Of a stretch of DNA of 64,000 bases, positions 738 to 26,603 are shown in pieces; the stretch's first letter is position 1; the number at the start of each line of letters is the position of its first letter. The stretch spans positions 83,939 through 147,938 of the forward strand of contig JASEFN010000003.1 of NCBI GenBank assembly GCA_030018355.1, written 5' to 3'. Source of the DNA: Caldisericia bacterium (GTDB lineage Bacteria > Caldisericota > Caldisericia > B22-G15). The translations under genes were made by a program, and so were the position numbers. The notes under the pieces were generated by a model, which was given only the letters and a program-made list of their open reading frames with translations, did not search any database and was not told where the DNA came from.

Positions 738-1238
738 ATGTGGAGAAGAGGAAAGGGTTTTACCCTTATTGAGTTAATGGTTGTAATCGCAATTATCTTG
801 ATTCTTGCTCTTATTGCTATTCCAGCTTATAGGAATATGCAAAATAGAGCAAGGAAATCAAGAGTTCAGAGTGATTTAAGGACACTCGCAAATGCTCTTC
901 AAATGTTTTACACTGACTGGAATACTTATCCTGTTCAAGAAACTGCTGATAGATTAGTTGCAACCTCAGGTCCAGGAGCAGAACTTACAGGGAGTACTGC
1001 TGCAACAATTAATGTTTCTACAGCGGTAAGTGCAACAGGTGAAAGAGGTGGAATAGTATATATAGAGAAACTTCCAATTGATCCATTTGATCCAGGTAAT
1101 GGTTCTTATTATTATCAAAGTAATCCTAGTGGTACCTCATATGTGTTATATTCTCAGACATCAGCACCTAACGAATATATATATAGAGATTCTGTTGGAA
1201 ATGCTGGTGTAACGACTACAGCTCCAACACCTCCATAA
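738..1238 (+). CDS. Type IV pilin / pseudopilin, the likely major subunit.
   Basis: N-terminus KGFTLIELMVVIAIILILALIAIPAY is a prepilin cleavage/methylation motif with Glu5. Strong RBS AAAGGAGG. Followed by a strong terminator. Confidence 0.85.
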   Translation: MWRRGKGFTLIELMVVIAIILILALIAIPAYRNMQNRARKSRVQSDLRTLANALQMFYTDWNTYPVQETADRLVATSGPGAELTGSTAATINVSTAVSATGERGGIVYIEKLPIDPFDPGNGSYYYQSNPSGTSYVLYSQTSAPNEYIYRDSVGNAGVTTTAPTPP

Positions 1239-1282
1239 TAATTTTTGTTAACTTTTAATACTTGTTGAGTTTAAAGGTTATC

Positions 1283-1320
1283 GGAGGAGAGAGATATCTC
1301 TCTCCTCCAGTTTAAAAAAT
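1283..1320 (+). terminator. Rho-independent terminator.
   Basis: Perfect hairpin GGAGGAGAGAGAT-ATC-TCTCTCCTCC followed by a T/A-rich tract. Confidence 0.7.
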
Positions 1321-1352
1321 TTTAAAGGGGAAATTAAAAGAGGAATTTAATT

Positions 1353-2015
1353 GTGATAATTTTTAAGTTATTTAGAAACAAAAAAGGAATTACCTTAATT
1401 GAAGCAATACTTGCTATTGTAATTTTTGTTTTTCCAATCTTTGCTACTCTATCTACTATAACTTTTTTATATCAACAAACACGTAATAGAAATCTTGAAT
1501 TACTTGCTGAAAATTTATGTAATTATATTTTAGAGGATTTGAGGGGTAGAAAATTTTATTATTATGAGGGAGAGGTGGGAGTAACTGAACAAAATAATCT
1601 TCAAAGGTTATATGAAGTTTTACCACAAGAAGAAATTTTGCCAGACGGTTCTGATCCTTTTGGTTATCCTGGAGAAAGAATAATGAAATATTCATGTATT
1701 AATGATACAATTTATGATACTGCTATTTATAATGAGAATAATCCATCATATACTTATCCATATGTTATTTTTCCTTCTGATGATTCAAGAAAATTTTATA
1801 ATATATTTAAAGTTGAACTTTATATAACAAGATTTATTAATGCCAATGTAAATGAACCAATCGAAAATGTTGATCCATATAAATTCATTTATAAAATAGA
1901 TGTTGTTTTATTAATTGAAGATCCTAAAAGTTCTTATACAAATTTAAAAGGAACTGTGTATGGTTGGAAAAGATTCACAGTAGCATCAACTGAGGTAACA
2001 TACCATGATCCGTAA
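1353..2015 (+). CDS. Prepilin-type minor pilin (GTG start).
   Basis: KGITLIEAILAIVIFVF N-terminal motif with an RBS upstream. Confidence 0.6.
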   Translation: MIIFKLFRNKKGITLIEAILAIVIFVFPIFATLSTITFLYQQTRNRNLELLAENLCNYILEDLRGRKFYYYEGEVGVTEQNNLQRLYEVLPQEEILPDGSDPFGYPGERIMKYSCINDTIYDTAIYNENNPSYTYPYVIFPSDDSRKFYNIFKVELYITRFINANVNEPIENVDPYKFIYKIDVVLLIEDPKSSYTNLKGTVYGWKRFTVASTEVTYHDP

Positions 2016-2556
2016 AAGACTTGGTTTTACTTTGATAGAACTTATGATATCTATTGCAATTTTTTCTGTAATTTTAGTTGGTATATATCCTATTTTTACT
2101 CAAATTACTACATTTAATCAAGAGAATTATATAAGAACTGCTCTTATAGATAATTTAAGAGCAGGGATGGATAGATTGATAAGGGAATTAAGAGAAGCAA
2201 CATCGGTAGAATTAGAGAATAATTTAATTCAAGATAATTATATAATATTTTCTCACCCAAATCCAAATTCTCCAAGTGGGATAGAGACAGTTAAATATGA
2301 ACTTACCACATCATCTTATTCAATCAGTTTTTTTCCTCAAGGAAAAGAGATCAAAAGATATGTTTATAATAGTACAACCAATTCATGGGAAGGTGGAAAT
2401 CCAGTTACTGAACCTACGATTTACTCATTAAAATTTTTAAGAGTTGGTCAAATTATTAAGATAGAAATAATTTCAAAAGTGCAATTAAGACTAAAAAAAG
2501 CACCACAAGATTATATTTATTTAGCTAATGTAACGGTTAGAAACCCATTACCTTAA
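2005..2556 (+). CDS. Prepilin-type minor pilin.
   Basis: LGFTLIELMISIAIFSVIL N-terminus. It overlaps the upstream gene end, indicating an operon. Confidence 0.7.
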   Translation: MIRKRLGFTLIELMISIAIFSVILVGIYPIFTQITTFNQENYIRTALIDNLRAGMDRLIRELREATSVELENNLIQDNYIIFSHPNPNSPSGIETVKYELTTSSYSISFFPQGKEIKRYVYNSTTNSWEGGNPVTEPTIYSLKFLRVGQIIKIEIISKVQLRLKKAPQDYIYLANVTVRNPLP

Positions 2557-2589
2557 TATAAATTTAATTATAAAGAAAGGAGGAAAGAT

Positions 2590-4983
2590 ATGTATAAAAA
2601 AAGAAATGGATTTGCATTAATTACTGTGTTAATCATATCAACTATTCTATTTGGTGTAATAGGCTTCACTTTTATTGCTGCTAATAGAAATTTAAATTTA
2701 AAAACAATTCTTCATCTTTCAAAAACCTCTTTAACAACCGCTGATGCTGGACTTGAAGAGATCATAAGAGAGATTCAGAGTAGTCATTTTGATAACATAG
2801 GATTATATTTATTAACACAATATATAAAAGGTTTAGATTCAACACCAGCCCTTTATAATTACTATCCTGATTTCTTCAAAGATCCAAGAAATGGTAATTA
2901 CATTTTAACAAGAGCAAAATATTTTATGGATTTTGATTATTATACACTTGATAGCGTAGGTAATCCTGTTCCAATGAAAATTGTTAATTGGAACGATTCT
3001 AATTCAAATGGACTTGCAGATGAAGGTGAATATATTTCTAAAGTGGTTGTAGAACCAAATGAAATTAAAGTTGTGGAAAGTGTCACAAGATTTATAGAAA
3101 ATTTGGCAAGACCTCAAGATGATTCAAAAATAACTGAAATTACTAATGATATTCAAAATGCATATAACACATGGATGACATATCTATGGGGTCTAAACTG
3201 GAATGAGGGGTTTAAAACAACTGACACAGGCGTAAATCTTGGAAAAATGGAAGAGATGATAAGTAAAATTGGTGGTAATGATTTAGTTGCTGATTGTTCA
3301 GGAATTAATATAAATGATGTAGTTAAACCATATGATATTGATCATCCAGCAACAGGTGATACATATGAAGGAATTATTATTCAAACTGCTGGAAAAATTG
3401 ACAGTTCAACAAGTTCGCCACAAAGAGGTTTAATAATTATAACAGCAATTGGTTATTCATTTAGTTCACCAATTCCAAAAGTTGATTATGAAAATATAAT
3501 TAAACCAAGACTTACACTTGTATGTCCAAGACCAAGTGACCCCGAATATCCAGATCACTATTTAAATGTTCTTGATATCGATGCTATTAATAACTCTCTC
3601 AAACTTGCAGGTGTTAGATATAGAATTACTCCGATGAAAAGAGGAATTAGGGGTGAATTTGAAGTAAAATATGAGGCGCCACCAAATTCAATAATTCAAT
3701 TATTAAGAGAATCAGAGACAGTGCAAACAATATCATATCAAGACCAGGTTAGTTTTTCAGATTATCTTGTTGCATCAAATGACACAATAAATTTTGGATA
3801 TGATGAAGAAGTTCATGGTCCAATTAGAAGTAATGGCAACATAAACTTTTCTGGAGAAATTTGGGGCACAATAACTGCAAATGATTATGTTTGGGATTAT
3901 ATAACATTTGGTCCTTATGCAAATCAACATACAGGTGGCTTTCATTTTTATTATAATGGTACAGAATATAAAGTGGAACCTTTTAAAAATACAACCCAAA
4001 ATAATCCTTCGTATACTATTGCAAATATTTATCCTTCATTAGTTTATAATGGGGTGACATATACCACTGTGAAAATTGTTCAAGCACCAGACCAAAAGAC
4101 ATATTATGTAGATTTACCACCATTTAATTCACCATTAAACAATATCGGACCTGAAGATGTAAAGGTTTATTCACAATTACAACCTAATATGGATTTTTCA
4201 AGAGTTCAAACATCTGGAAATCAAATAAAAACAATTGCACAACAAACTGGTTATTATTTTAACGGAACAAGTACACCAGTTGAGTTGCATTTTCTTGAAA
4301 ATGGCACAATTCAAATAAAAGAGGGGAATGGACCAACAAGAATAATTCCAATGCCAACAAATTATCCTGTTACCCTTCCAGATGGAACAGTATATCAAGG
4401 AGGAGTTATTTATGTTCAAGGTGATGTTACTGTTAGAGGCAAAGTTAATGGAAGAGTAACTGTTTATGCATCGGATGATATATGGATAATGTCTGATTTA
4501 ACATATGTTCACCCTGCTGTTACAGATCCAAATCAAGTACCAAATTATATTCCTGATGCACTTGGTTTAATTGCTTATGATGATGTCTTTATACATAAAA
4601 ATGCTCCAGAACACTTAAGAATTGATGCAGCAGTTTTAGCACAAACTGGTTCTTTTGGGATAGATCCAAACGCTAATTGGCATCCATATAATCCAAATGG
4701 ACATGTTCTTGATTTTAGAGGTTCTCAAACTTTCTATTCATCAGATAATGCACCAGCGATTGTAAGTGGCAGTAGAGTGAAAGGATATGAAACTCAATTG
4801 ACTTATTATGATTATAACTTACAAAGAGCAAGACCACCCCTATTCCCAACTATTGGAGATGAAGTTATAACAAGAATAGCAATTACCAACACTCAAACAT
4901 ACGATGAAATAAATTTAGTTGGACCACTTAAATCAACACTTTTTGGTAGAATTCTCTGGCGTGAAATGGTAAACCCTCCATAA
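2590..4983 (+). CDS. Large (797 aa) pilin-like protein, a putative pilus-tip or adhesin minor pilin of the PilX/GspK-like class.
   Basis: NGFALITVLIISTILFGV pseudopilin-like N-terminus, then a long Asn/Thr/Tyr-rich extracellular-type domain. RBS AAGGAGG. Confidence 0.55.
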   Translation: MYKKRNGFALITVLIISTILFGVIGFTFIAANRNLNLKTILHLSKTSLTTADAGLEEIIREIQSSHFDNIGLYLLTQYIKGLDSTPALYNYYPDFFKDPRNGNYILTRAKYFMDFDYYTLDSVGNPVPMKIVNWNDSNSNGLADEGEYISKVVVEPNEIKVVESVTRFIENLARPQDDSKITEITNDIQNAYNTWMTYLWGLNWNEGFKTTDTGVNLGKMEEMISKIGGNDLVADCSGININDVVKPYDIDHPATGDTYEGIIIQTAGKIDSSTSSPQRGLIIITAIGYSFSSPIPKVDYENIIKPRLTLVCPRPSDPEYPDHYLNVLDIDAINNSLKLAGVRYRITPMKRGIRGEFEVKYEAPPNSIIQLLRESETVQTISYQDQVSFSDYLVASNDTINFGYDEEVHGPIRSNGNINFSGEIWGTITANDYVWDYITFGPYANQHTGGFHFYYNGTEYKVEPFKNTTQNNPSYTIANIYPSLVYNGVTYTTVKIVQAPDQKTYYVDLPPFNSPLNNIGPEDVKVYSQLQPNMDFSRVQTSGNQIKTIAQQTGYYFNGTSTPVELHFLENGTIQIKEGNGPTRIIPMPTNYPVTLPDGTVYQGGVIYVQGDVTVRGKVNGRVTVYASDDIWIMSDLTYVHPAVTDPNQVPNYIPDALGLIAYDDVFIHKNAPEHLRIDAAVLAQTGSFGIDPNANWHPYNPNGHVLDFRGSQTFYSSDNAPAIVSGSRVKGYETQLTYYDYNLQRARPPLFPTIGDEVITRIAITNTQTYDEINLVGPLKSTLFGRILWREMVNPP

Positions 4984-4995
4984 ATATAACTTTTA

Positions 4996-5025
4996 GGGGG
5001 TGATAAATTTCACCCCCAGTTTAAT
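4996..5025 (+). terminator. Rho-independent terminator.
   Basis: GGGGGTGA-TAAATT-TCACCCCC hairpin followed by an AT-rich run. Confidence 0.65.
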
Positions 5026-5030
5026 AAGAA

Positions 5031-5555
5031 ATGAATAAAAAAGGATTTACAATAATTGAATTAGTGGTAACTTTAGCAGTTCTACTTGTTTTAATAGGTG
5101 GAGTTGTATATATTTCTCCAAGATTTATAATGAGGCAAAAATTAAAAAATAATGCATGGCAAGTTTTAAATGATATTAAAGAGGTTCAGGAAAGAGCAAG
5201 GGCACAACTTGAAAGATTAAGAATTGAATTTGATATAGATAATGGAACTTATAGATATGAAAAAAGGAAAAATGCTTTTGAGAGTGGATCAAATGAGAAT
5301 GTTGTGACTAAAAAACTTGATTTAAGAATAAATTTTAAAAGCATAAGAATTGGAAATACTACCTATGGAGCAGGAATTGCAACTTATATGTATGATGAAT
5401 GGGGGGCACCAAAAAAAGTTGATAACACAGATCCTGGCGAAATTTTAATTATTATAGAGACCCCAAGTTTAAAAAATAGTGAAGGACAAAATTTATCTAT
5501 TGAAATAACTGTTGCCCCAGGAACAGGTGCTCTTCGCATGTTTGGTCCAAAATAA
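5031..5555 (+). CDS. Prepilin-type pilin.
   Basis: KGFTIIELVVTLAVLLVL N-terminus. Confidence 0.7.
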   Translation: MNKKGFTIIELVVTLAVLLVLIGGVVYISPRFIMRQKLKNNAWQVLNDIKEVQERARAQLERLRIEFDIDNGTYRYEKRKNAFESGSNENVVTKKLDLRINFKSIRIGNTTYGAGIATYMYDEWGAPKKVDNTDPGEILIIIETPSLKNSEGQNLSIEITVAPGTGALRMFGPK

Positions 5556-5588
5556 GTCATATTAAATTTAGGATGTTATAATTTATTT

Positions 5589-6002
5589 GTGAGAAGAGAT
5601 AAAAAAGAAGAAGCAAAAAGATGGATTTTACAAGCAATAGATGAATATAATGATGCAGAAGAATTAAGAAAATTAAATAAATTTTATTTAGCACTTTTTC
5701 ATTTTCAACAAGCAGTTGAAAAAGCGCTAAAAGGATTTTTATATTTTAAAACTGGTTCTATTCATCACTTTTTTACACACTCGATTGATGATTTATTAAT
5801 ACAAGCAATAAATTTTGATAAAGAATTTGAAAATTATAAAGATTCAAAAAAATTAGATAAATATTATATACCTACAAGATATCCTAATGGTCTTCCTGGT
5901 GGAATTCCTTCAAGATTTTTTGATGACCCTGAAGAAGCACTTGAAGCATCTAAAATTGCAAAGAAAATTATTTATTTTATTAAGGATAAATTAGATTTAT
6001 GA
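5589..6002 (+). CDS. HEPN-domain protein, the putative toxin partner of the adjacent MNT.
   Basis: About 137 aa and alpha-helical, with YIPTRYP near the C-terminus, typical of the HEPN (PF05168) family. Its stop overlaps the nucleotidyltransferase start. Confidence 0.6.
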   Translation: MRRDKKEEAKRWILQAIDEYNDAEELRKLNKFYLALFHFQQAVEKALKGFLYFKTGSIHHFFTHSIDDLLIQAINFDKEFENYKDSKKLDKYYIPTRYPNGLPGGIPSRFFDDPEEALEASKIAKKIIYFIKDKLDL

Positions 6003-6349
6003 ATCTTTTAGATTTTATAAAAAAAGAGAAATTAAAAAGAAAAAAGTTATTAGAAAAAAATTTAAAGAAGATAATTTCACAATTAAAAAAAATAGGTGCA
6101 TTAAAAATTTATCTTTTCGGTTCTTTTTCAAGAGGTGATATAGATATTTATAGCGATATTGATTTATTTATTGTTATGCCTGAAGATAAAAGTGGAAAAG
6201 AGTGGTTAGATATAATATATGAATCTATTGAAAAAGATGTTGCAGTTGATTTTATTGTTTTCAATAAAAAAGAATTTGAATATGAAAAAGATTTTAATCC
6301 TTTAATAATTAATATACTTGAAAATGGCAAATTAATTTATTCAAAATGA
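5999..6349 (+). CDS. Minimal nucleotidyltransferase (MNT) of a HEPN/MNT pair.
   Basis: GSFSRGDIDIYSDIDL, the classic G-S-x(9-13)-D-x-D NTase motif. Confidence 0.8.
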   Translation: MNLLDFIKKEKLKRKKLLEKNLKKIISQLKKIGALKIYLFGSFSRGDIDIYSDIDLFIVMPEDKSGKEWLDIIYESIEKDVAVDFIVFNKKEFEYEKDFNPLIINILENGKLIYSK

Positions 6350-6419
6350 TAAAATAACATCTTGAAATAAAAATTCAATTTTTGTTAAAATAATAAAAAT
6401 AATTTTTTGGAGTTATTTT

Positions 6420-7082
6420 GTGTTTAAAAAATTTAATGGATTTACAATAATAGAACTTATTGTTGTTATTACAATTCTTTCGATAATTTCAATGGGTATA
6501 ATTTATCTTTCTCCAACTCTTATTGCTACTCAAAAATTAAGAAATGATGCATGGCAACTTGTTAATGATTTAAGAGAGGTTCAGGTAAGAGCAATGGCAC
6601 AACTTGAAAAGTTAAAAATCAATTTTTATGTTTATAATCCAAGTACACCAGAATTAAATAATATTTATGTATTTGAATTAAGAGAAGGTGCAATTCAAAA
6701 TGCATATAATGTGGGAAAAGATATTGTTTATATTATTAATCATCCAGGCGAGTTTCCAAATATTGTTGTAAGAAAATTTAGCAAAAATATAGGTTTTCCA
6801 TACTCATTTGGATATACTCAGGGAATTACAACAGACGATGGTTTAGGTAGTGCAAATTCTGTTGTTTTTGGAACTCAATCATCTCCAATCTCTTATTTTG
6901 TTTCATTTTCTTTCAATGAATGGGGAAATCCATCTCAAGGAGGTCATATAAATTTAATTTCTAATAATTTACTTGGAAAAACAAAAGATTCAAAAGGCAA
7001 CAGATTACCAAAAGTTATAACAATTTACATAACACCAGCAACTGGTCGCATAAGATTTGTTGGACCTCGTGATTGGAATTAA
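6420..7082 (+). CDS. Prepilin-type pilin (GTG start).
   Basis: NGFTIIELIVVITILS N-terminus. It resembles the protein encoded at 5031-5555, especially in the N-terminal segment (LRNDAWQLVNDLREVQ vs LKNNAWQVLNDIKEVQ). Confidence 0.7.
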   Translation: MFKKFNGFTIIELIVVITILSIISMGIIYLSPTLIATQKLRNDAWQLVNDLREVQVRAMAQLEKLKINFYVYNPSTPELNNIYVFELREGAIQNAYNVGKDIVYIINHPGEFPNIVVRKFSKNIGFPYSFGYTQGITTDDGLGSANSVVFGTQSSPISYFVSFSFNEWGNPSQGGHINLISNNLLGKTKDSKGNRLPKVITIYITPATGRIRFVGPRDWN

Positions 7083-7084
7083 TC

Positions 7085-7117
7085 ATGTTACAAAGGTGCC
7101 TGACACCATTGTAACAT
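7085..7117. repeat. Palindromic repeat copy A (ATGTTACAAAGGTGCCTGACACCATTGTAACAT).
   Basis: Near-perfect 33-bp inverted repeat directly read from the sequence. It belongs to a five-copy family in the window. Confidence 0.8.
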
Positions 7118-7162
7118 GGGTTTTTATTGACAAAAGCGTAGTTTATGATATAAAATGAAGTT

Positions 7163-7236
7163 GGGTGCGGGGTCAAGGGGAGCCCGACTTTAGGGATGAG
7201 GTCTTTGGAAAAAAAGATAAGTGACCTTCCGCACCC
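7163..7236. ncRNA. Candidate small structured RNA of unknown class.
   Basis: GGGTGCGG+GGTCA ... TGACC+CCGCACCC long-range stem enclosing a CCC-GACTTTA-GGG hairpin. It is a GC island in an otherwise AT-rich intergenic region and is flanked by palindromic repeats. No ORF. Confidence 0.25.
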
Positions 7237-7266
7237 TTAAATATTTTTAGTTCAAGATTTTAAAAA

Positions 7267-7299
7267 ATGTTAAAATTGTGTCTGACACTTTTGTAACAT
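7267..7299. repeat. Palindromic repeat copy B.
   Basis: ATGTTAAAATTGTGTCTGACACTTTTGTAACAT. Confidence 0.75.
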
Positions 7300-7300
7300 G

Positions 7301-7333
7301 ATGTTAAAATCGTGTCTGACACTATTGTAACAT
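7301..7333. repeat. Palindromic repeat copy C, in tandem with copy B.
   Basis: ATGTTAAAATCGTGTCTGACACTATTGTAACAT. Confidence 0.75.
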
Positions 7334-7334
7334 G

Positions 7335-8141
7335 TTAGATTTCGAGATTGAGAGATTTTAATATAAATTTTATAACATCATCTGCTTTTCTTTCATCAGA
7401 AATAGAAATTAGATCTTGTTTAAGTTTTTTTAAATTTTCTCTAAATAGATTAAAATCTTGCATACCCTTTGGAATATGATATGTAAGATAATATAGACCC
7501 TTTGGCCCAATATTTTTATCTATATATTCGGAGAATTTTTCATAAAGGTAATTTGGTATATTTATTAATTTGTCTGATTTTTTAAGTAAACCAACTGAAA
7601 GGAGAGCATAAAGTATCTTTATAACTTTTGTTTCAGGCAAAATTGTATTTTTCATTGCATCTTCTATACTAATTGGATTCATAAATAGATACATTACATG
7701 CCACTCATCAGGAGAAAGTTCAATGTTGTTTTCAGGAGCATTTGGATTCATTTCAATTATTGTATATCTTGGAGGTATCTTTTTATAAAGATCTTTTGTC
7801 TCATCTGCAGTTCTTATTGCATCAATCATTAGAACATCAATTGATTTTGTAATTTTTTGAGGGGTATCAATTTCTTTTAATTTAAATGAAAAAGTCCCCT
7901 CATCTATTAAAAAAAGTGAATAAAATGCCTCTTCACCAGTTAAATTTCCACAAAATGCATCATAAACTTTTCCTTTTACAATATGAATTTCACCCTTTAT
8001 CTCCTCAACCCCTTTTTTACCTTGAATATATAATATACCAGTTTTTCCTGAATTAGAAAGAAGTGTTAAAACATCAACAATAGGAAAAGTTTCAATATTT
8101 CCCTCAATAGCCATTCTGATAACCTCCTTTTTAAATTTCAA
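7335..8141 (-). CDS. DUF4388-like domain protein, a possible signalling or receiver-like protein.
   Basis: N-terminal GNIETFPIVDVLTLLSNSGKTGILYI resembles the DUF4388 family. Weak call. Confidence 0.35.
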   Translation of the reverse strand: MKFKKEVIRMAIEGNIETFPIVDVLTLLSNSGKTGILYIQGKKGVEEIKGEIHIVKGKVYDAFCGNLTGEEAFYSLFLIDEGTFSFKLKEIDTPQKITKSIDVLMIDAIRTADETKDLYKKIPPRYTIIEMNPNAPENNIELSPDEWHVMYLFMNPISIEDAMKNTILPETKVIKILYALLSVGLLKKSDKLINIPNYLYEKFSEYIDKNIGPKGLYYLTYHIPKGMQDFNLFRENLKKLKQDLISISDERKADDVIKFILKSLNLEI

Positions 8142-8918: not shown

Positions 8919-10742
8919 TCACTCAACTGTTACAGATTTTGCTAAATTTCTCGGTTTATCCACATCAAGACCTCTTAAGTCTGCTGTATAATAAGCAATA
9001 AGTTGCAATGGAACAACTGATAAAATTGGTGAAATATATATATGTGTTCTTGGAATAATTATTGAATCGTCTGATTCTTCAATTATACCTTTAAAATCTT
9101 CTCTAACAATTGAATAAACATTACCTTTTCTTGCTTTAACCTCTTTTATATTTGATTGCATTTTTTCAAAAACTCTCTCATCAGTAGATATAGCAAATGT
9201 TGGAACACTCTCTTCAATGAGAGCAAGTGGTCCATGTTTAAGTTCTCCTGCAGGATATCCTTCGGCATGAAGATAAGAAATTTCCTTTAATTTTAGAGCA
9301 CCCTCAAGAGCAGTTGGATAATCAAGTAATCTTCCAATATAGAATGCATTATTAAGATTTACAATTTTTTCAGCAAGTTCAAATGGTTTTTTAGTATCAC
9401 TCAAAATTCTATTTACAAGGTCTGGCACTCTCTCTATTTCTTTAACAATATAGTCCTCGAAATCTTCAAAAATTACTCCTCTTAATTTTCCTATATGGAT
9501 AGAAAATAAAAGAAGGGTTAAAATTTGAGCAACATATGCTTTTGTAGATGCAACAGCAATTTCAGGTCCTGCATATATTTGAAGCACTTCATCACTCTCT
9601 CTAAAAATTGTGCTTCCATTAACATTTACTATACCTAAAGTTTTTGCTCCCAAATTTTTTGCAAGGCGAAGAGAGGCGATTGTATCTGCAGTTTCACCTG
9701 ATTGAGAAACAAGAATAACAAGAGAATCTTTATTTATATTTGGATTTTCATATCTAAACTCAGATGCTGTATCACATTTTATGGGTATATCAAGAAGGTC
9801 AGTTAAAATATATTTTGCAACTAATCCAGCGTGATATGCAGTACCACATGCAACAATATGTATATTTTTAACTCTTTTTAAAAATTCATTATCTTTTATT
9901 TCAGTGAGAATGACTTTTCCATTTTTTATTCTTCCTCTTAAGGTATCTTTTAAAATTTCTCCTTGTTCCATTATCTCTTTCAACATAAAATGTTTATAAC
10001 CTTTTTTCTCAGCCTGCTCAATATTCCACTTTACTTCCATTTTTTCAAGTTTAATTTCTTCACCGTTCATATTTACAACTTTAACAGTATCTTTTTTAAT
10101 AAGCGCAATCTCGCCATCTTTAAGAATTACAACATTTTTTGTATAAGGTAGAAGTGCTGGAATATCTGATGCAAGAAAATTTTCATTATTACCAAGACCA
10201 ATAATTAATGGTGATTCTTTTCTTACTGCAACTATTTTATCTTTTTCTTTATTTGAAAAAATTGCTAGAGCAAATGAACCTTTAAGAAATTTAACTGCTT
10301 TTAGTGTTGCTTCAAAAATATCTCCATCATAAAACTCTTCAATTAAATGTGGAACAACTTCTGTATCTGTTTCAGATTGAAATATGTGTCCTTTTGATAT
10401 TAAATCTTTTTTAATTTCATCATAATTTTCAATTATTCCATTATGAACAACAATAATCTCCTTTTTACAATCAAAATGCGGATGAGCATTAATGTCAGAT
10501 GGTGGACCATGCGTTGCCCATCTTGTTTGACCTATTCCAAGAGAATATTCTCCATTTATACATGAATTTTTAATTTTTTCTTCAAGAAGAGATATTCTTC
10601 CTTTTGTTTTCATAAGGTAAAGTTCTTTTCCACATAATGCAATTCCTGCTGAATCATATCCTCTATATTCTAATCTTTTTAAACCATCTATAATAATTGG
10701 AAGAATATCTCTATCACCAATATATCCAACAATACCACACAT
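8919..10742 (-). CDS. glmS: Glutamine--fructose-6-phosphate aminotransferase.
   Basis: Starts MCGIVGY (the catalytic Cys after Met), has SIS domains and the C-terminal ...SVTVE. The start was moved from the track's 10778 to the internal ATG at 10742 because the ribozyme occupies the upstream sequence. Confidence 0.93.
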   Translation of the reverse strand: MCGIVGYIGDRDILPIIIDGLKRLEYRGYDSAGIALCGKELYLMKTKGRISLLEEKIKNSCINGEYSLGIGQTRWATHGPPSDINAHPHFDCKKEIIVVHNGIIENYDEIKKDLISKGHIFQSETDTEVVPHLIEEFYDGDIFEATLKAVKFLKGSFALAIFSNKEKDKIVAVRKESPLIIGLGNNENFLASDIPALLPYTKNVVILKDGEIALIKKDTVKVVNMNGEEIKLEKMEVKWNIEQAEKKGYKHFMLKEIMEQGEILKDTLRGRIKNGKVILTEIKDNEFLKRVKNIHIVACGTAYHAGLVAKYILTDLLDIPIKCDTASEFRYENPNINKDSLVILVSQSGETADTIASLRLAKNLGAKTLGIVNVNGSTIFRESDEVLQIYAGPEIAVASTKAYVAQILTLLLFSIHIGKLRGVIFEDFEDYIVKEIERVPDLVNRILSDTKKPFELAEKIVNLNNAFYIGRLLDYPTALEGALKLKEISYLHAEGYPAGELKHGPLALIEESVPTFAISTDERVFEKMQSNIKEVKARKGNVYSIVREDFKGIIEESDDSIIIPRTHIYISPILSVVPLQLIAYYTADLRGLDVDKPRNLAKSVTVE

Positions 10743-10767
10743 AAATTTCTCCTTTTGCCTGGTCTTC

Positions 10768-10920
10768 CCTTTGTTCACAGGTTACCCTGTGTTTTTGAGG
10801 AAGACCTCAAAGGACGGCAACATCCTTGAGGGCATCCGCCGAATGGTTCGATTTTACCCCTTTTAAATAAGGGGAACCCTCTTCCTCGTCACCCAGATTT
10901 TTATATCTGGGCCAGGCGCT
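10768..10920 (-). ncRNA. glmS ribozyme: glmS ribozyme (GlcN6P-dependent self-cleaving riboswitch).
   Basis: Minus-strand RNA reads ...A|GCGCCUGGCCCAGAU..AUCUGGGUGACGAGGAAGAGGGUUCC...AUCGAACCAUUCGGCGGAUGCCCUC...GUGAACAAAGGGAAGACC. This matches the conserved glmS ribozyme core seen in Bacillus: AGCGCC cleavage site, UGACGAGGA, UCGAA..UUCGGCGGAUGCC, GAACAAAG.GAA. Confidence 0.85.
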
Positions 10921-12196
10921 TTTTTAAAAAGTTTTCTAAGGAGAGTGCTATCTCCTTAATCTCTTCCTCTTTTTCACCTTCCACCATAATTCTAATTAAA
11001 TTTTCTGTTCCTGATGGTCTTACCAAAACCCTTCCTTTTCCATTTAATCTTTCATTCCATATCATCACCTCCTTTTTAAATTCTTCGTCATTCATAACTA
11101 AATTTTTATTTGAAACTTCTACATTTCTTAAAATTTGAGGATATCTTATAAATTCTTTTTTCAATTCAGAAAGTGGCTTGTTTTCATTTAAAATAACTCT
11201 CAAAAGTAAAAGTGAAGTTATTATTCCATCTCCAGTTTTACTTTGTGGGAGAAAAATTATGTGACCAGATTGTTCTCCACCAATTGGAGCATTTACTTCA
11301 AGCATTTTATAAAGAACATTTCTATCACCAACTGGAGTTTCATAATATTTTATCTTATATTTTTCAAGAAGAATTTTTAACCCAAAATTACTCATTACTG
11401 TTATTACAATGCTATCTAATTTTAGGTATTTAACGAGAATAAACATTATTATATCTCCATCTACAACTTCTCCCTTATCATCAACTGCAATAACTCTATC
11501 TCCATCTCCGTCAAAAGAAAATCCTATATCAAAGTTACTCTCTTTCTTTTTTTGAACAAGAAAATTAATATTTGTAGAGCCACAATTTACATTTATTTTA
11601 TTTCCATCTGGAATTTCATTATAAAGAATGAGATCTGCATTAAGTGATGAGAAAATAATTGGAGCAACAACCGTTGTTGAGCCATAAGCAAGATCCAAAG
11701 CAATTTTCATTCCTTTTAAATTTAATTTATTATTTTTTATAACCTCACTAATATATTGATGTTTACCTAAAAGAAATTCAAAATTTTTTCCGAAATTTTT
11801 ACTTAATTTAATTTCACTATCAATTAATTTTTCTATCTCTTCTTCCTCATCTTCTGAAAGTTTAATTCCACTTCTGTTGAAAAATTTTATTCCATTATAC
11901 TCAATTGGGTTGTGAGATGCAGAGATCATTCCTCCCCCACTTTTTCCATTTATTTTAAGAAGAAGAGAGAGTGCTGGTGTTGGAAGAATTCCAGTTGAAT
12001 AAACATTAACACCAGTAGATAAAATTCCTGAAATTAAAGCAGCCTCAAGTGAATCAGATGATAAACGAGGGTCTTTTGAAACAATTAAATCTCCTTTAAA
12101 AAATAATCCTGCTGCTTTGCCTACTTTTAAAGCAAAATCTGGTGTTAGATCTTCATTTGCAATGCCTCTTATACCATCAGTCCCAAAGTATTTCAT
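10901..12196 (-). CDS. glmM: Phosphoglucosamine mutase.
   Basis: ISASHNPIEYNGIKF phosphoserine-loop motif and the FGTDGIRG N-terminus. Confidence 0.9.
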   Translation of the reverse strand: MKYFGTDGIRGIANEDLTPDFALKVGKAAGLFFKGDLIVSKDPRLSSDSLEAALISGILSTGVNVYSTGILPTPALSLLLKINGKSGGGMISASHNPIEYNGIKFFNRSGIKLSEDEEEEIEKLIDSEIKLSKNFGKNFEFLLGKHQYISEVIKNNKLNLKGMKIALDLAYGSTTVVAPIIFSSLNADLILYNEIPDGNKINVNCGSTNINFLVQKKKESNFDIGFSFDGDGDRVIAVDDKGEVVDGDIIMFILVKYLKLDSIVITVMSNFGLKILLEKYKIKYYETPVGDRNVLYKMLEVNAPIGGEQSGHIIFLPQSKTGDGIITSLLLLRVILNENKPLSELKKEFIRYPQILRNVEVSNKNLVMNDEEFKKEVMIWNERLNGKGRVLVRPSGTENLIRIMVEGEKEEEIKEIALSLENFLKKRLAQI

Positions 12197-12692: not shown

Positions 12693-12731
12693 AACATGTT
12701 ACTATGGTGTCTGACACCATTGTAACATGTT
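12693..12731. repeat. Palindromic repeat copy D (AACATGTTACTATGGTGTC-T-GACACCATTGTAACATGTT).
   Basis: 39-bp near-perfect palindrome between the ABC permease stop and the osmC/glmM/glmS operon. Confidence 0.8.
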
Positions 12732-18259: not shown

Positions 18260-18333
18260 TGGGGAGTAGCCAAGTGGTAAGGCAGCGGACTTTGGATCCG
18301 CGATCGGTGGTTCGAATCCACCCTCCCCAGCCA
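18260..18333 (+). tRNA. tRNA-Gln (anticodon UUG) with encoded CCA.
   Basis: Cloverleaf: acceptor TGGGGAG/CTCCCCA, D-arm GCC-AAGTGGTAA-GGC, anticodon stem GCGGA/TCCGC with loop CTTTGGA (anticodon TTG), T-arm GGTGG-TTCGAAT-CCACC, discriminator G, then CCA. Closely resembles E. coli tRNA-Gln. Confidence 0.9.
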
Positions 18334-26545: not shown

Positions 26546-26550
26546 AAAAA

Positions 26551-26583
26551 ATGTTACAAAAGTGTCTGACACCATTTTAACAT
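26551..26583. repeat. Palindromic repeat copy E (degenerate).
   Basis: ATGTTACAAAAGTGTCTGACACCATTTTAACAT. Confidence 0.65.
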
Positions 26584-26603
26584 TTTTAATATAGGAGGTT
26601 TAA

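Follow-up and report, generated by a model that had tools for sequence, protein, structure and literature searches.

Does the short GC-rich element that lies between two convergent genes in this AT-rich genome constitute a gene of its own, and what kind of RNA would such a gene encode? The element belongs to a stretch of 64 kb (from here on, the window, with all positions counted from its first base) in which the neighboring proteins point to uncultured members of the Caldisericota/Caldisericia. Little work has been done on the phylum Caldisericota, of which only one species is in culture. An initial annotation, made from the sequence alone, had read the element either as a small RNA gene or as the cargo of a repeat-flanked mini-element. 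The first of these readings is borne out by a promoter of its own that is conserved in position, a sharp island of conservation in 10 variants, and a noncoding sequence, and we consider it very likely that we are dealing with a real, free-standing small RNA gene.

The GC-rich element and its surroundings

The 74-nt sequence quoted in the initial annotation matches positions 7163 to 7236 of the + strand exactly, and from its fold, its conservation, and a covariance model, we take this interval to be the whole predicted transcript body of a structured small RNA. The description of a GC-rich, structured element of about 75 nt was therefore accurate (74 nt, 55% GC, with a stable fold), while the span originally assigned to it, 7119 to 7266, coincides with the whole gap between the repeats and not with the element itself. 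The GC content of 55% (0.554), versus 28.8% for the genome, lies 3.9 standard deviations above the mean of all 74-nt segments (mean, 0.288; standard deviation, 0.068) and ranks third among them in the 64 kb. The three richest segments are a tRNA (18260 to 18330), a c-di-GMP-II riboswitch (601 to 688), and the 74-nt element, with the glmS ribozyme (10751 to 10931) tied for fourth, and the tRNA, the riboswitch, and the ribozyme are all confirmed by Rfam. GC-rich islands in a genome of 29% GC thus pick out structured RNAs. Other 74-nt segments with 50 to 53% GC, around 20084, 21063, 25650, 58337, 58992, 60716, and 63131, may be coding or may hide further structured RNAs.

The element sits between the end of a prepilin-like open reading frame (ORF) at 7082 (+) and that of an ORF with DUF4388/PATAN domains at 7335 (−). 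The first of these closes a cluster of genes with prepilin motifs (738 to 7082), headed by a type IV pilin-like ORF (738 to 1238). Directly upstream of this ORF is the c-di-GMP-II-GAG riboswitch mentioned above (601 to 688, +; 42.6 bits, with a gathering score of 40), which suggests that c-di-GMP controls a pilus or pseudopilus operon. Within the cluster, two paralogous prepilin-like genes (5031 to 5555 and 6420 to 7082), which have in common a stretch of 135 nt with 78% identity, are separated by an inserted pair that resembles a toxin-antitoxin system, made up of a HEPN gene (5589 to 6002) and a minimal nucleotidyltransferase gene (5999 to 6349). One related locus (L004) carries two such pairs in the same cluster. 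On the other side, the glmS ribozyme (−; 91 bits) lies upstream of the glmS ORF (8919 to 10778) and is followed by an operon of glmS, an NTP-transferase gene, and the DUF4388 gene, an arrangement that is the same in all related loci. Some relatives (L005 and L013) have two tandem DUF4388 genes. In several relatives, a gene for a WYL-domain regulator is followed by genes for Cas6 and a Cas8b-type protein (TM1802) (L005:14960-18599, L009:19455-20771, and L011:16346-17663); these genes are ~6 to 9 kb from the RNA and apparently unrelated to it.

The palindromic repeats that had been reported on both sides of the element are real. Copy A occupies positions 7084 to 7118, and copies B and C positions 7266 to 7300 and 7300 to 7334, all of them neighbors that fall outside the RNA gene. 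They belong to a family of near-perfect palindromes of 35 nt, CATGTTACAAnGGTGTCTGACACCnTTGTAACATG, in intergenic DNA at gene ends, with further copies standing alone at 12695 to 12729 and 26550 to 26584, and their core, GGTG(T/C)CTGACACC, is found again, flanked by other arms, in related genomes (L005:1-40 and L018:4920-4962). These palindromes are probably REP-like or terminator hairpins. Like REP-like palindromes, they are found at gene ends, both singly and in tandem. Their sequence has no relation to that of the RNA, next to which they are absent in the relatives. On the − strand, which is that of the operon, TTTTTT comes directly after the second of the two hairpins, that of copy B, and folding of the spacer gives −22 kcal/mol, so in this strain these two copies probably act as the terminator hairpins of the DUF4388 operon.

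Promoter, transcript, and predicted fold

Upstream of the element there is a −35 box, TTGACA (7127 to 7132, +), followed after an 18-nt spacer by a −10 box, TAAAAT (7151 to 7156, +), and the two together match 11 of the 12 consensus positions. The TTGACA had been noticed at the outset, with coordinates one base off (7128 to 7133). As an alternative, the overlapping TGATATAAA might represent an extended −10 box. Promoter-like matches are common in AT-rich DNA (5 were found, versus 3.1 expected), and the weight of the promoter evidence therefore comes from conservation. The relatives have TTGACA-17/18-(TGn)TATAAT, with TGn before the −10 box in most of them. Of those for which upstream DNA was read, nearly all (L005 being the exception) have the TTGACA in the corresponding place, and the end of the −10 box is invariably exactly 6 nt ahead of the RNA's first G. 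Transcription is predicted to start at that first G, position 7163.

The other end of the transcript is less uniform. The A/T-rich tail noted initially is present as UUAAAUAUUUUUAG (7237 to 7250, +), a possible termination region. An uninterrupted U run right after the closing stem P1 is seen only in some relatives (L005, L014, and L027), and the others have UU followed by a mixture of A and U, as in the tail AUUAAAAAUUC of L030. A terminator scan found none at the element on either strand, because what it would have to accept as the loop between the two stem strands is 48 nt long. The 3′ end of the RNA would fall after P1, in the region of the A/U-rich tail.

The predicted structure is closed by two helices. 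P1 is formed by 8 bp between GGGUGCGG (7163 to 7170, +) and CCGCACCC (7229 to 7236, +), both strands being invariant (in all 10 variants for the 5′ strand), and P2 by 4 to 5 bp between GGUCA (7171 to 7175, +) and UGACC (7222 to 7226, +), with a bulge of 2 nt (7227 and 7228, UU here) parting the two helices on the 3′ side. The stem of 12 to 13 bp that results is GC-rich, and together with the bulge it closes a three-way junction. The closing stem of 13 bp proposed in the initial annotation is thus present as pairing, although the bulge splits it into 8 bp plus 4 to 5 bp and the fifth pair of P2 is not kept. The minimum free energy (MFE) of the + strand is −30 to −31 kcal/mol, with a z score of −3.0 and 0 to 1 of 200 shuffled sequences folding as well, and the z score ranges from −2.1 to −3.0 across the variants.

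Inside the junction, an invariant purine-rich strand, AGGGGAG (7176 to 7182, +), leads into the predicted hairpin CCC-GACUUUA-GGG (7183 to 7195, +; stem of 3 bp and loop of 7 nt), also invariant. It is followed by a variable region (7196 to 7221, +) that comprises a hairpin, (G)UCUUU-GGAAAA-AAAGA(U), and an A-rich tail ending in a conserved AAG (7219 to 7221), with which AGGGGAG could form tandem A·G/G·A pairs. The CCC-GACUUUA-GGG hairpin had been part of the original description and is recovered, together with a short second hairpin, in the RNAalifold consensus over the relatives as well as in the MFE structures of the relatives. It is absent from the MFE structure of the window's own sequence, in which GGG-GAG-CCC plus GACUUUA/UGAGGUC takes its place. 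The latter structure uses an alternative pairing of the junction compared to the consensus, so that the two predictions differ in the interior of the fold.

Conservation among relatives and absence of known families

To follow the RNA through related genomes, we used loci encoding homologs of the DUF4388 protein (50 to 100% identity), together with metagenome matches to an invariant 19-mer, GGGGAGCCCGACTTTAGGG. The RNA was found once in every syntenic locus for which enough downstream DNA was fetched, and 10 of the 11 metagenome matches to the 19-mer proved to be this RNA, again in that context. The remaining match (L017) is a GC-rich chance match that scores 14 bits in the covariance model, against 95 bits for the element in the window and 90 to 98 bits in the relatives, always with one copy per locus searched. 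The RNA is always convergent with the glmS-NTP-transferase-DUF4388 operon, at 21 to 191 nt past the DUF4388 stop codon. The genes on its far side differ between genomes and include those for pilin, PIN-like, YhhN, and DOMON proteins, HEPN/nucleotidyltransferase pairs, and aldehyde oxidase.

These loci provide 10 distinct variants of the RNA, with lengths of 72, 73, and 74 nt and indels inside the element. The first 33 nt, GGGUGCGGGGUCAAGGGGAGCCCGACUUUAGGG, are invariant in all of them, and so is the final CCGCACCC. GGUC/GACC of P2 is kept throughout, with a single change from U-A to U-G in the L013 group, while its fifth pair, A-U, is not kept, the partner being U, A, or C. The bulge reads UU, UA, UG, AA, or AU, with a constant length of 2 nt. 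The segment that runs from the invariant hairpin to P2 differs in sequence, and by 1 to 2 nt in length, yet no variant lacks a GGA placed within or next to a short hairpin loop, or the A-rich strand with AAG at its end. Pairing is found in 99% of the stem cells, compared with 35 to 45% when the partners are slid. The U-G change, which is the only substitution in the stem, keeps the pairing on the + strand and would be an A·C mismatch on the − strand. The + promoter and this change, which pairs only there, show the RNA gene to be on the + strand.

The RNA is 84 to 97% identical to that of the window, against 83 to 93% for the glmS ribozyme in these pairs of genomes, so the conservation of the RNA equals that of the ribozyme. 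The adjacent 74-nt flanks are 51 to 69% identical, which is the background level, and beyond the promoter, the sequences are unalignable. For the DUF4388 protein encoded next to the RNA, identity in the relatives is only 50 to 89%. Among 16 pairs tested for covariation, 14 never vary, 1 shows a wobble-compatible change, and 1 is broken, with no pair changed on both sides. There is no covariation because the stems almost never vary, and the fold is therefore neither supported nor refuted by it, resting instead on thermodynamics and conservation. The initial annotation had counted a lack of stem covariation against the element, and with 14 of the 16 pairs invariant, such a lack is uninformative here rather than a failure. 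Part of this invariance is due to limited divergence, as the sampled clade is narrow.

More distant contexts with a DUF4388 paralog (L028 and L029) held no copy of the RNA as judged by the covariance model. A scan of a genome collection with a neighboring protein (which returned one locus) and the metagenome scan with the 19-mer (which returned the same clade only) yielded no divergent homologs. From these searches, the RNA is apparently restricted to one clade of uncultured Caldisericia. A scan of viral contigs gave 0 matches to the RNA, and a viral origin was discarded.

The comparison with Rfam envisaged at the outset covered the whole window at the gathering score, 401 nt at an E value of ≤10, and 88 nt at an E value of ≤10 with lax filters, on both strands and with Rfam 15, and no family matched at the element, even at an E value of ≤10. 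The sole matches at that threshold were spurious ones of microRNA type, located on the palindromes. The original statements that the element is neither a tRNA nor a transfer-messenger RNA, and that it could not be matched confidently to signal recognition particle (SRP) RNA or 6S RNA, agree with these results. ARAGORN found no gene between 6900 and 7500, and the tRNA model of Rfam matched only at 18260 to 18330. Bacterial SRP RNA, of the small or the large type, had no covariance match (E value of ≤10), and inspection showed no conserved GNRA tetraloop or symmetric-loop motif of domain IV. For 6S RNA there was likewise no Rfam match, and the element has 74 nt versus an extended helix of ~150 to 200 nt with a large central bubble. 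Hammerhead-like GAUGAG, K-turn, tRNA cloverleaf, and hepatitis delta virus (HDV)-like topologies were rejected by inspection, the motifs being either not conserved or wrongly arranged. Nor does the element have the layout of a riboswitch or other cis-regulatory leader: in all relatives, as in the window, the gene that comes next downstream is convergent with it. Rfam 15 gave no aptamer family.

A coding sequence could also be discarded. Short ORFs are present in single variants only (AUG...UAA with 14 codons in the window and GUG ACC... with 7 to 12 codons in others), and two variants (L027 and L030) are without a start codon. The indels, of 1 to 2 nt, would shift a reading frame, and the variants have no ORF in common; the RNA is therefore noncoding. 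All in all, the RNA family is apparently undescribed and specific to this Caldisericia clade. Our search of the full-text literature returned no mention of the sequence and nothing relevant on small or structured RNAs or on CsrA in Caldisericum or Caldiserica. The element would be a first small RNA candidate for the Caldisericota, none being described in the literature searched. With it, a covariance model is at hand for the annotation of these genomes, as is a defined molecule of 74 nt for binding and probing experiments, although its practical importance will be modest until a partner or a phenotype is known.

Candidate functions and likeness to known RNAs

With moderate confidence in the statement as a whole, we propose that the element encodes an independently transcribed Caldisericia small RNA (sRNA) of ~74 to 85 nt that acts in trans via a conserved partner, most probably a protein. 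The near-consensus σ70 promoter would drive transcription from the first G of GGGUGCGG, and the 5′ and 3′ ends of the RNA would pair into P1, the 2-nt bulge, and P2, closing the three-way junction. This junction would hold the invariant purine-rich strand AAGGGGAG, the invariant 3-bp hairpin with its 7-nt loop GACUUUA, and the variable hairpin that presents GGA, together with the A-rich strand. The folded RNA would then be recognized by its partner, most probably a protein, through contacts with the invariant junction and loop, and would function as a component of a ribonucleoprotein or as a protein-sequestering RNA. The terminal stem P1/P2 would stabilize the molecule and probably help termination where a U run follows. 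Protein binding in trans, taken by itself as the mode of action, is a more tentative proposal. As both stem strands and the junction are invariant while the 2-nt bulge is saturated with changes, the constraint appears to act on the whole folded surface and not on one short seed, and with nearly the whole of that surface invariant, a simple seed-pairing RNA becomes less likely.

One possibility for a protein-sequestering RNA, by analogy, would be a sponge similar to the Csr/Rsm RNAs. Each variant has ~3 GGA motifs, kept through sequence change in most variants, against a chance estimate of ~2.4 for a G/A-rich 74-mer. Searches with tblastn for CsrA and Hfq gave no match in ~367 kb of redundant genome fragments. 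The RNA might also be a housekeeping-grade ribonucleoprotein or ligand-binding RNA unique to the lineage, whose gene may double as a stop signal and antisense partner of the convergent glmS-NTP-transferase-DUF4388 operon. In this reading, which we regard as unlikely, purifying selection would act on the entire surface of the folded RNA with the same strength as on the glmS ribozyme, and the stop and antisense function would link the RNA to the supply of cell envelope precursors.

Several other explanations account for parts of these data. A base-pairing regulatory sRNA would have as its seed either AAGGGGAG or the GACUUUA loop and the CCC/GGG that flank it, and the stem would be only a stabilizer and terminator. 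Many trans-acting sRNAs have a promoter of their own, a terminal stem, an A/U tail, an A-rich strand, and a conserved unpaired stretch, all of which are seen here, and the variable region behaves as nonseed sequence. Such an sRNA seems rather unlikely to us, however, as nearly all of the molecule is conserved, both strands of the stem included; the invariant core has no complement of ≥9 nt elsewhere in the 64-kb window, where the only matches are chance-like ones to the A/T-rich variable part; and AAGGGGAG looks like a Shine-Dalgarno sequence and not like the complement of one, so that ribosome-binding sites would not be its pairing partners. The constant position of the RNA, convergent and 21 to 191 nt past the DUF4388 stop in every lineage while its other flank has been repeatedly rearranged, would instead fit a cis element of the operon, that is, a bidirectional terminator and/or an RNA antisense to the read-through 3′ end that controls its stability. 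In the relatives, the spacer has weak A/T hairpins only and no GC-containing hairpin, so a transcript of the operon would continue into the RNA gene; in the window, by contrast, a hairpin followed by TTTTTT is provided by the repeats. For a terminator, though, neither a promoter of its own that is conserved nor a conserved interior of 48 nt is required, and terminator hairpins normally have loops of 3 to 8 nt and drift freely in sequence. The terminator scan was negative on both strands, the hairpin on the − strand is followed by mixed A/U sequence with no U run, and the U-G change makes an A·C mismatch there. We therefore see a cis element as a distinctly unlikely explanation of the whole RNA, and a cis role on the operon could coexist with a function in trans.

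The remaining explanations are weaker. Small aptamers typically have a three-way junction in which the junction itself and a loop do not vary, and with a promoter of its own pointing into the 3′ end of the operon, the element might be an orphan riboswitch in which a ligand-stabilized P1 terminates transcription, while without ligand, read-through would produce an antisense RNA to the DUF4388/glmS operon. P1 plus P2 amounts to 12 to 13 GC-rich pairs (~−30 kcal/mol for the whole fold), which is far more stable than ligand-dependent P1 stems, and with no conserved antiterminator pairing, no co-oriented downstream gene in any lineage, and no match to an Rfam aptamer, we judge this to be very improbable. 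Even less probable is a highly divergent form of a known housekeeping RNA (minimal SRP RNA, 6S RNA, Y RNA, or a tRNA-like RNA). The very strong promoter, the paired 5′ and 3′ ends, and conservation at the level of the glmS ribozyme are what such an RNA would show, but no Rfam 15 family matched the 88 nt on either strand with lax filters at an E value of ≤10, ARAGORN was negative, inspection revealed neither a GNRA tetraloop nor the symmetric-loop motif of SRP domain IV, and the element is far too short for 6S RNA. Last, the cargo of a repeat-flanked mobile mini-element, the second reading of the initial annotation, has in its favor the location between the palindromic 35-mers at 7084 to 7118 and 7266 to 7334. 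We find it hardly credible, since all relatives have the RNA at the same locus with the repeats absent, the repeats also stand alone at 12695 and 26550, and the RNA is single copy in the window and in every locus searched.

An sRNA with a conserved partner, as we propose, resembles several known systems in part. With small three-way-junction aptamers of the size of the purine riboswitches, it shares a length of ~70 nt, a junction closed by P1 with two hairpins, and the invariance of the junction and one loop. It differs from them in having neither an expression platform nor a co-oriented downstream gene, in its P1/P2 stem, which is too stable to switch, and in matching no Rfam aptamer. With CsrB, RsmY, and RsmZ, it has in common a strong promoter of its own and GGA motifs in or beside loops (AGGGGAG; GGGAUGA, UGGAUG, or UGGAAUG; and UUGGAA, AAGGAG, or AAGGAU). 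The Rsm and Csr RNAs contain 5 to 22 GGA motifs, whereas here there are ~3, a number near chance, with the middle motif missing in L027, and there is no Rfam match to these families. CsrB/Rsm-type sponges are known only from Gammaproteobacteria. Genes for generic trans-acting sRNAs are likewise free-standing and intergenic, with a near-consensus σ70 promoter, a product of ~75 to 85 nt, and a terminal helix rich in GC, after which comes an A/U-rich tail, and they too are noncoding and conserved only in a narrow clade. Their architecture, however, is that of a 5′ seed plus a 3′ terminator hairpin in which the seed is the conserved part, whereas in the Caldisericia RNA, the 5′ and 3′ ends pair to close a single three-way junction and almost every position is invariant.
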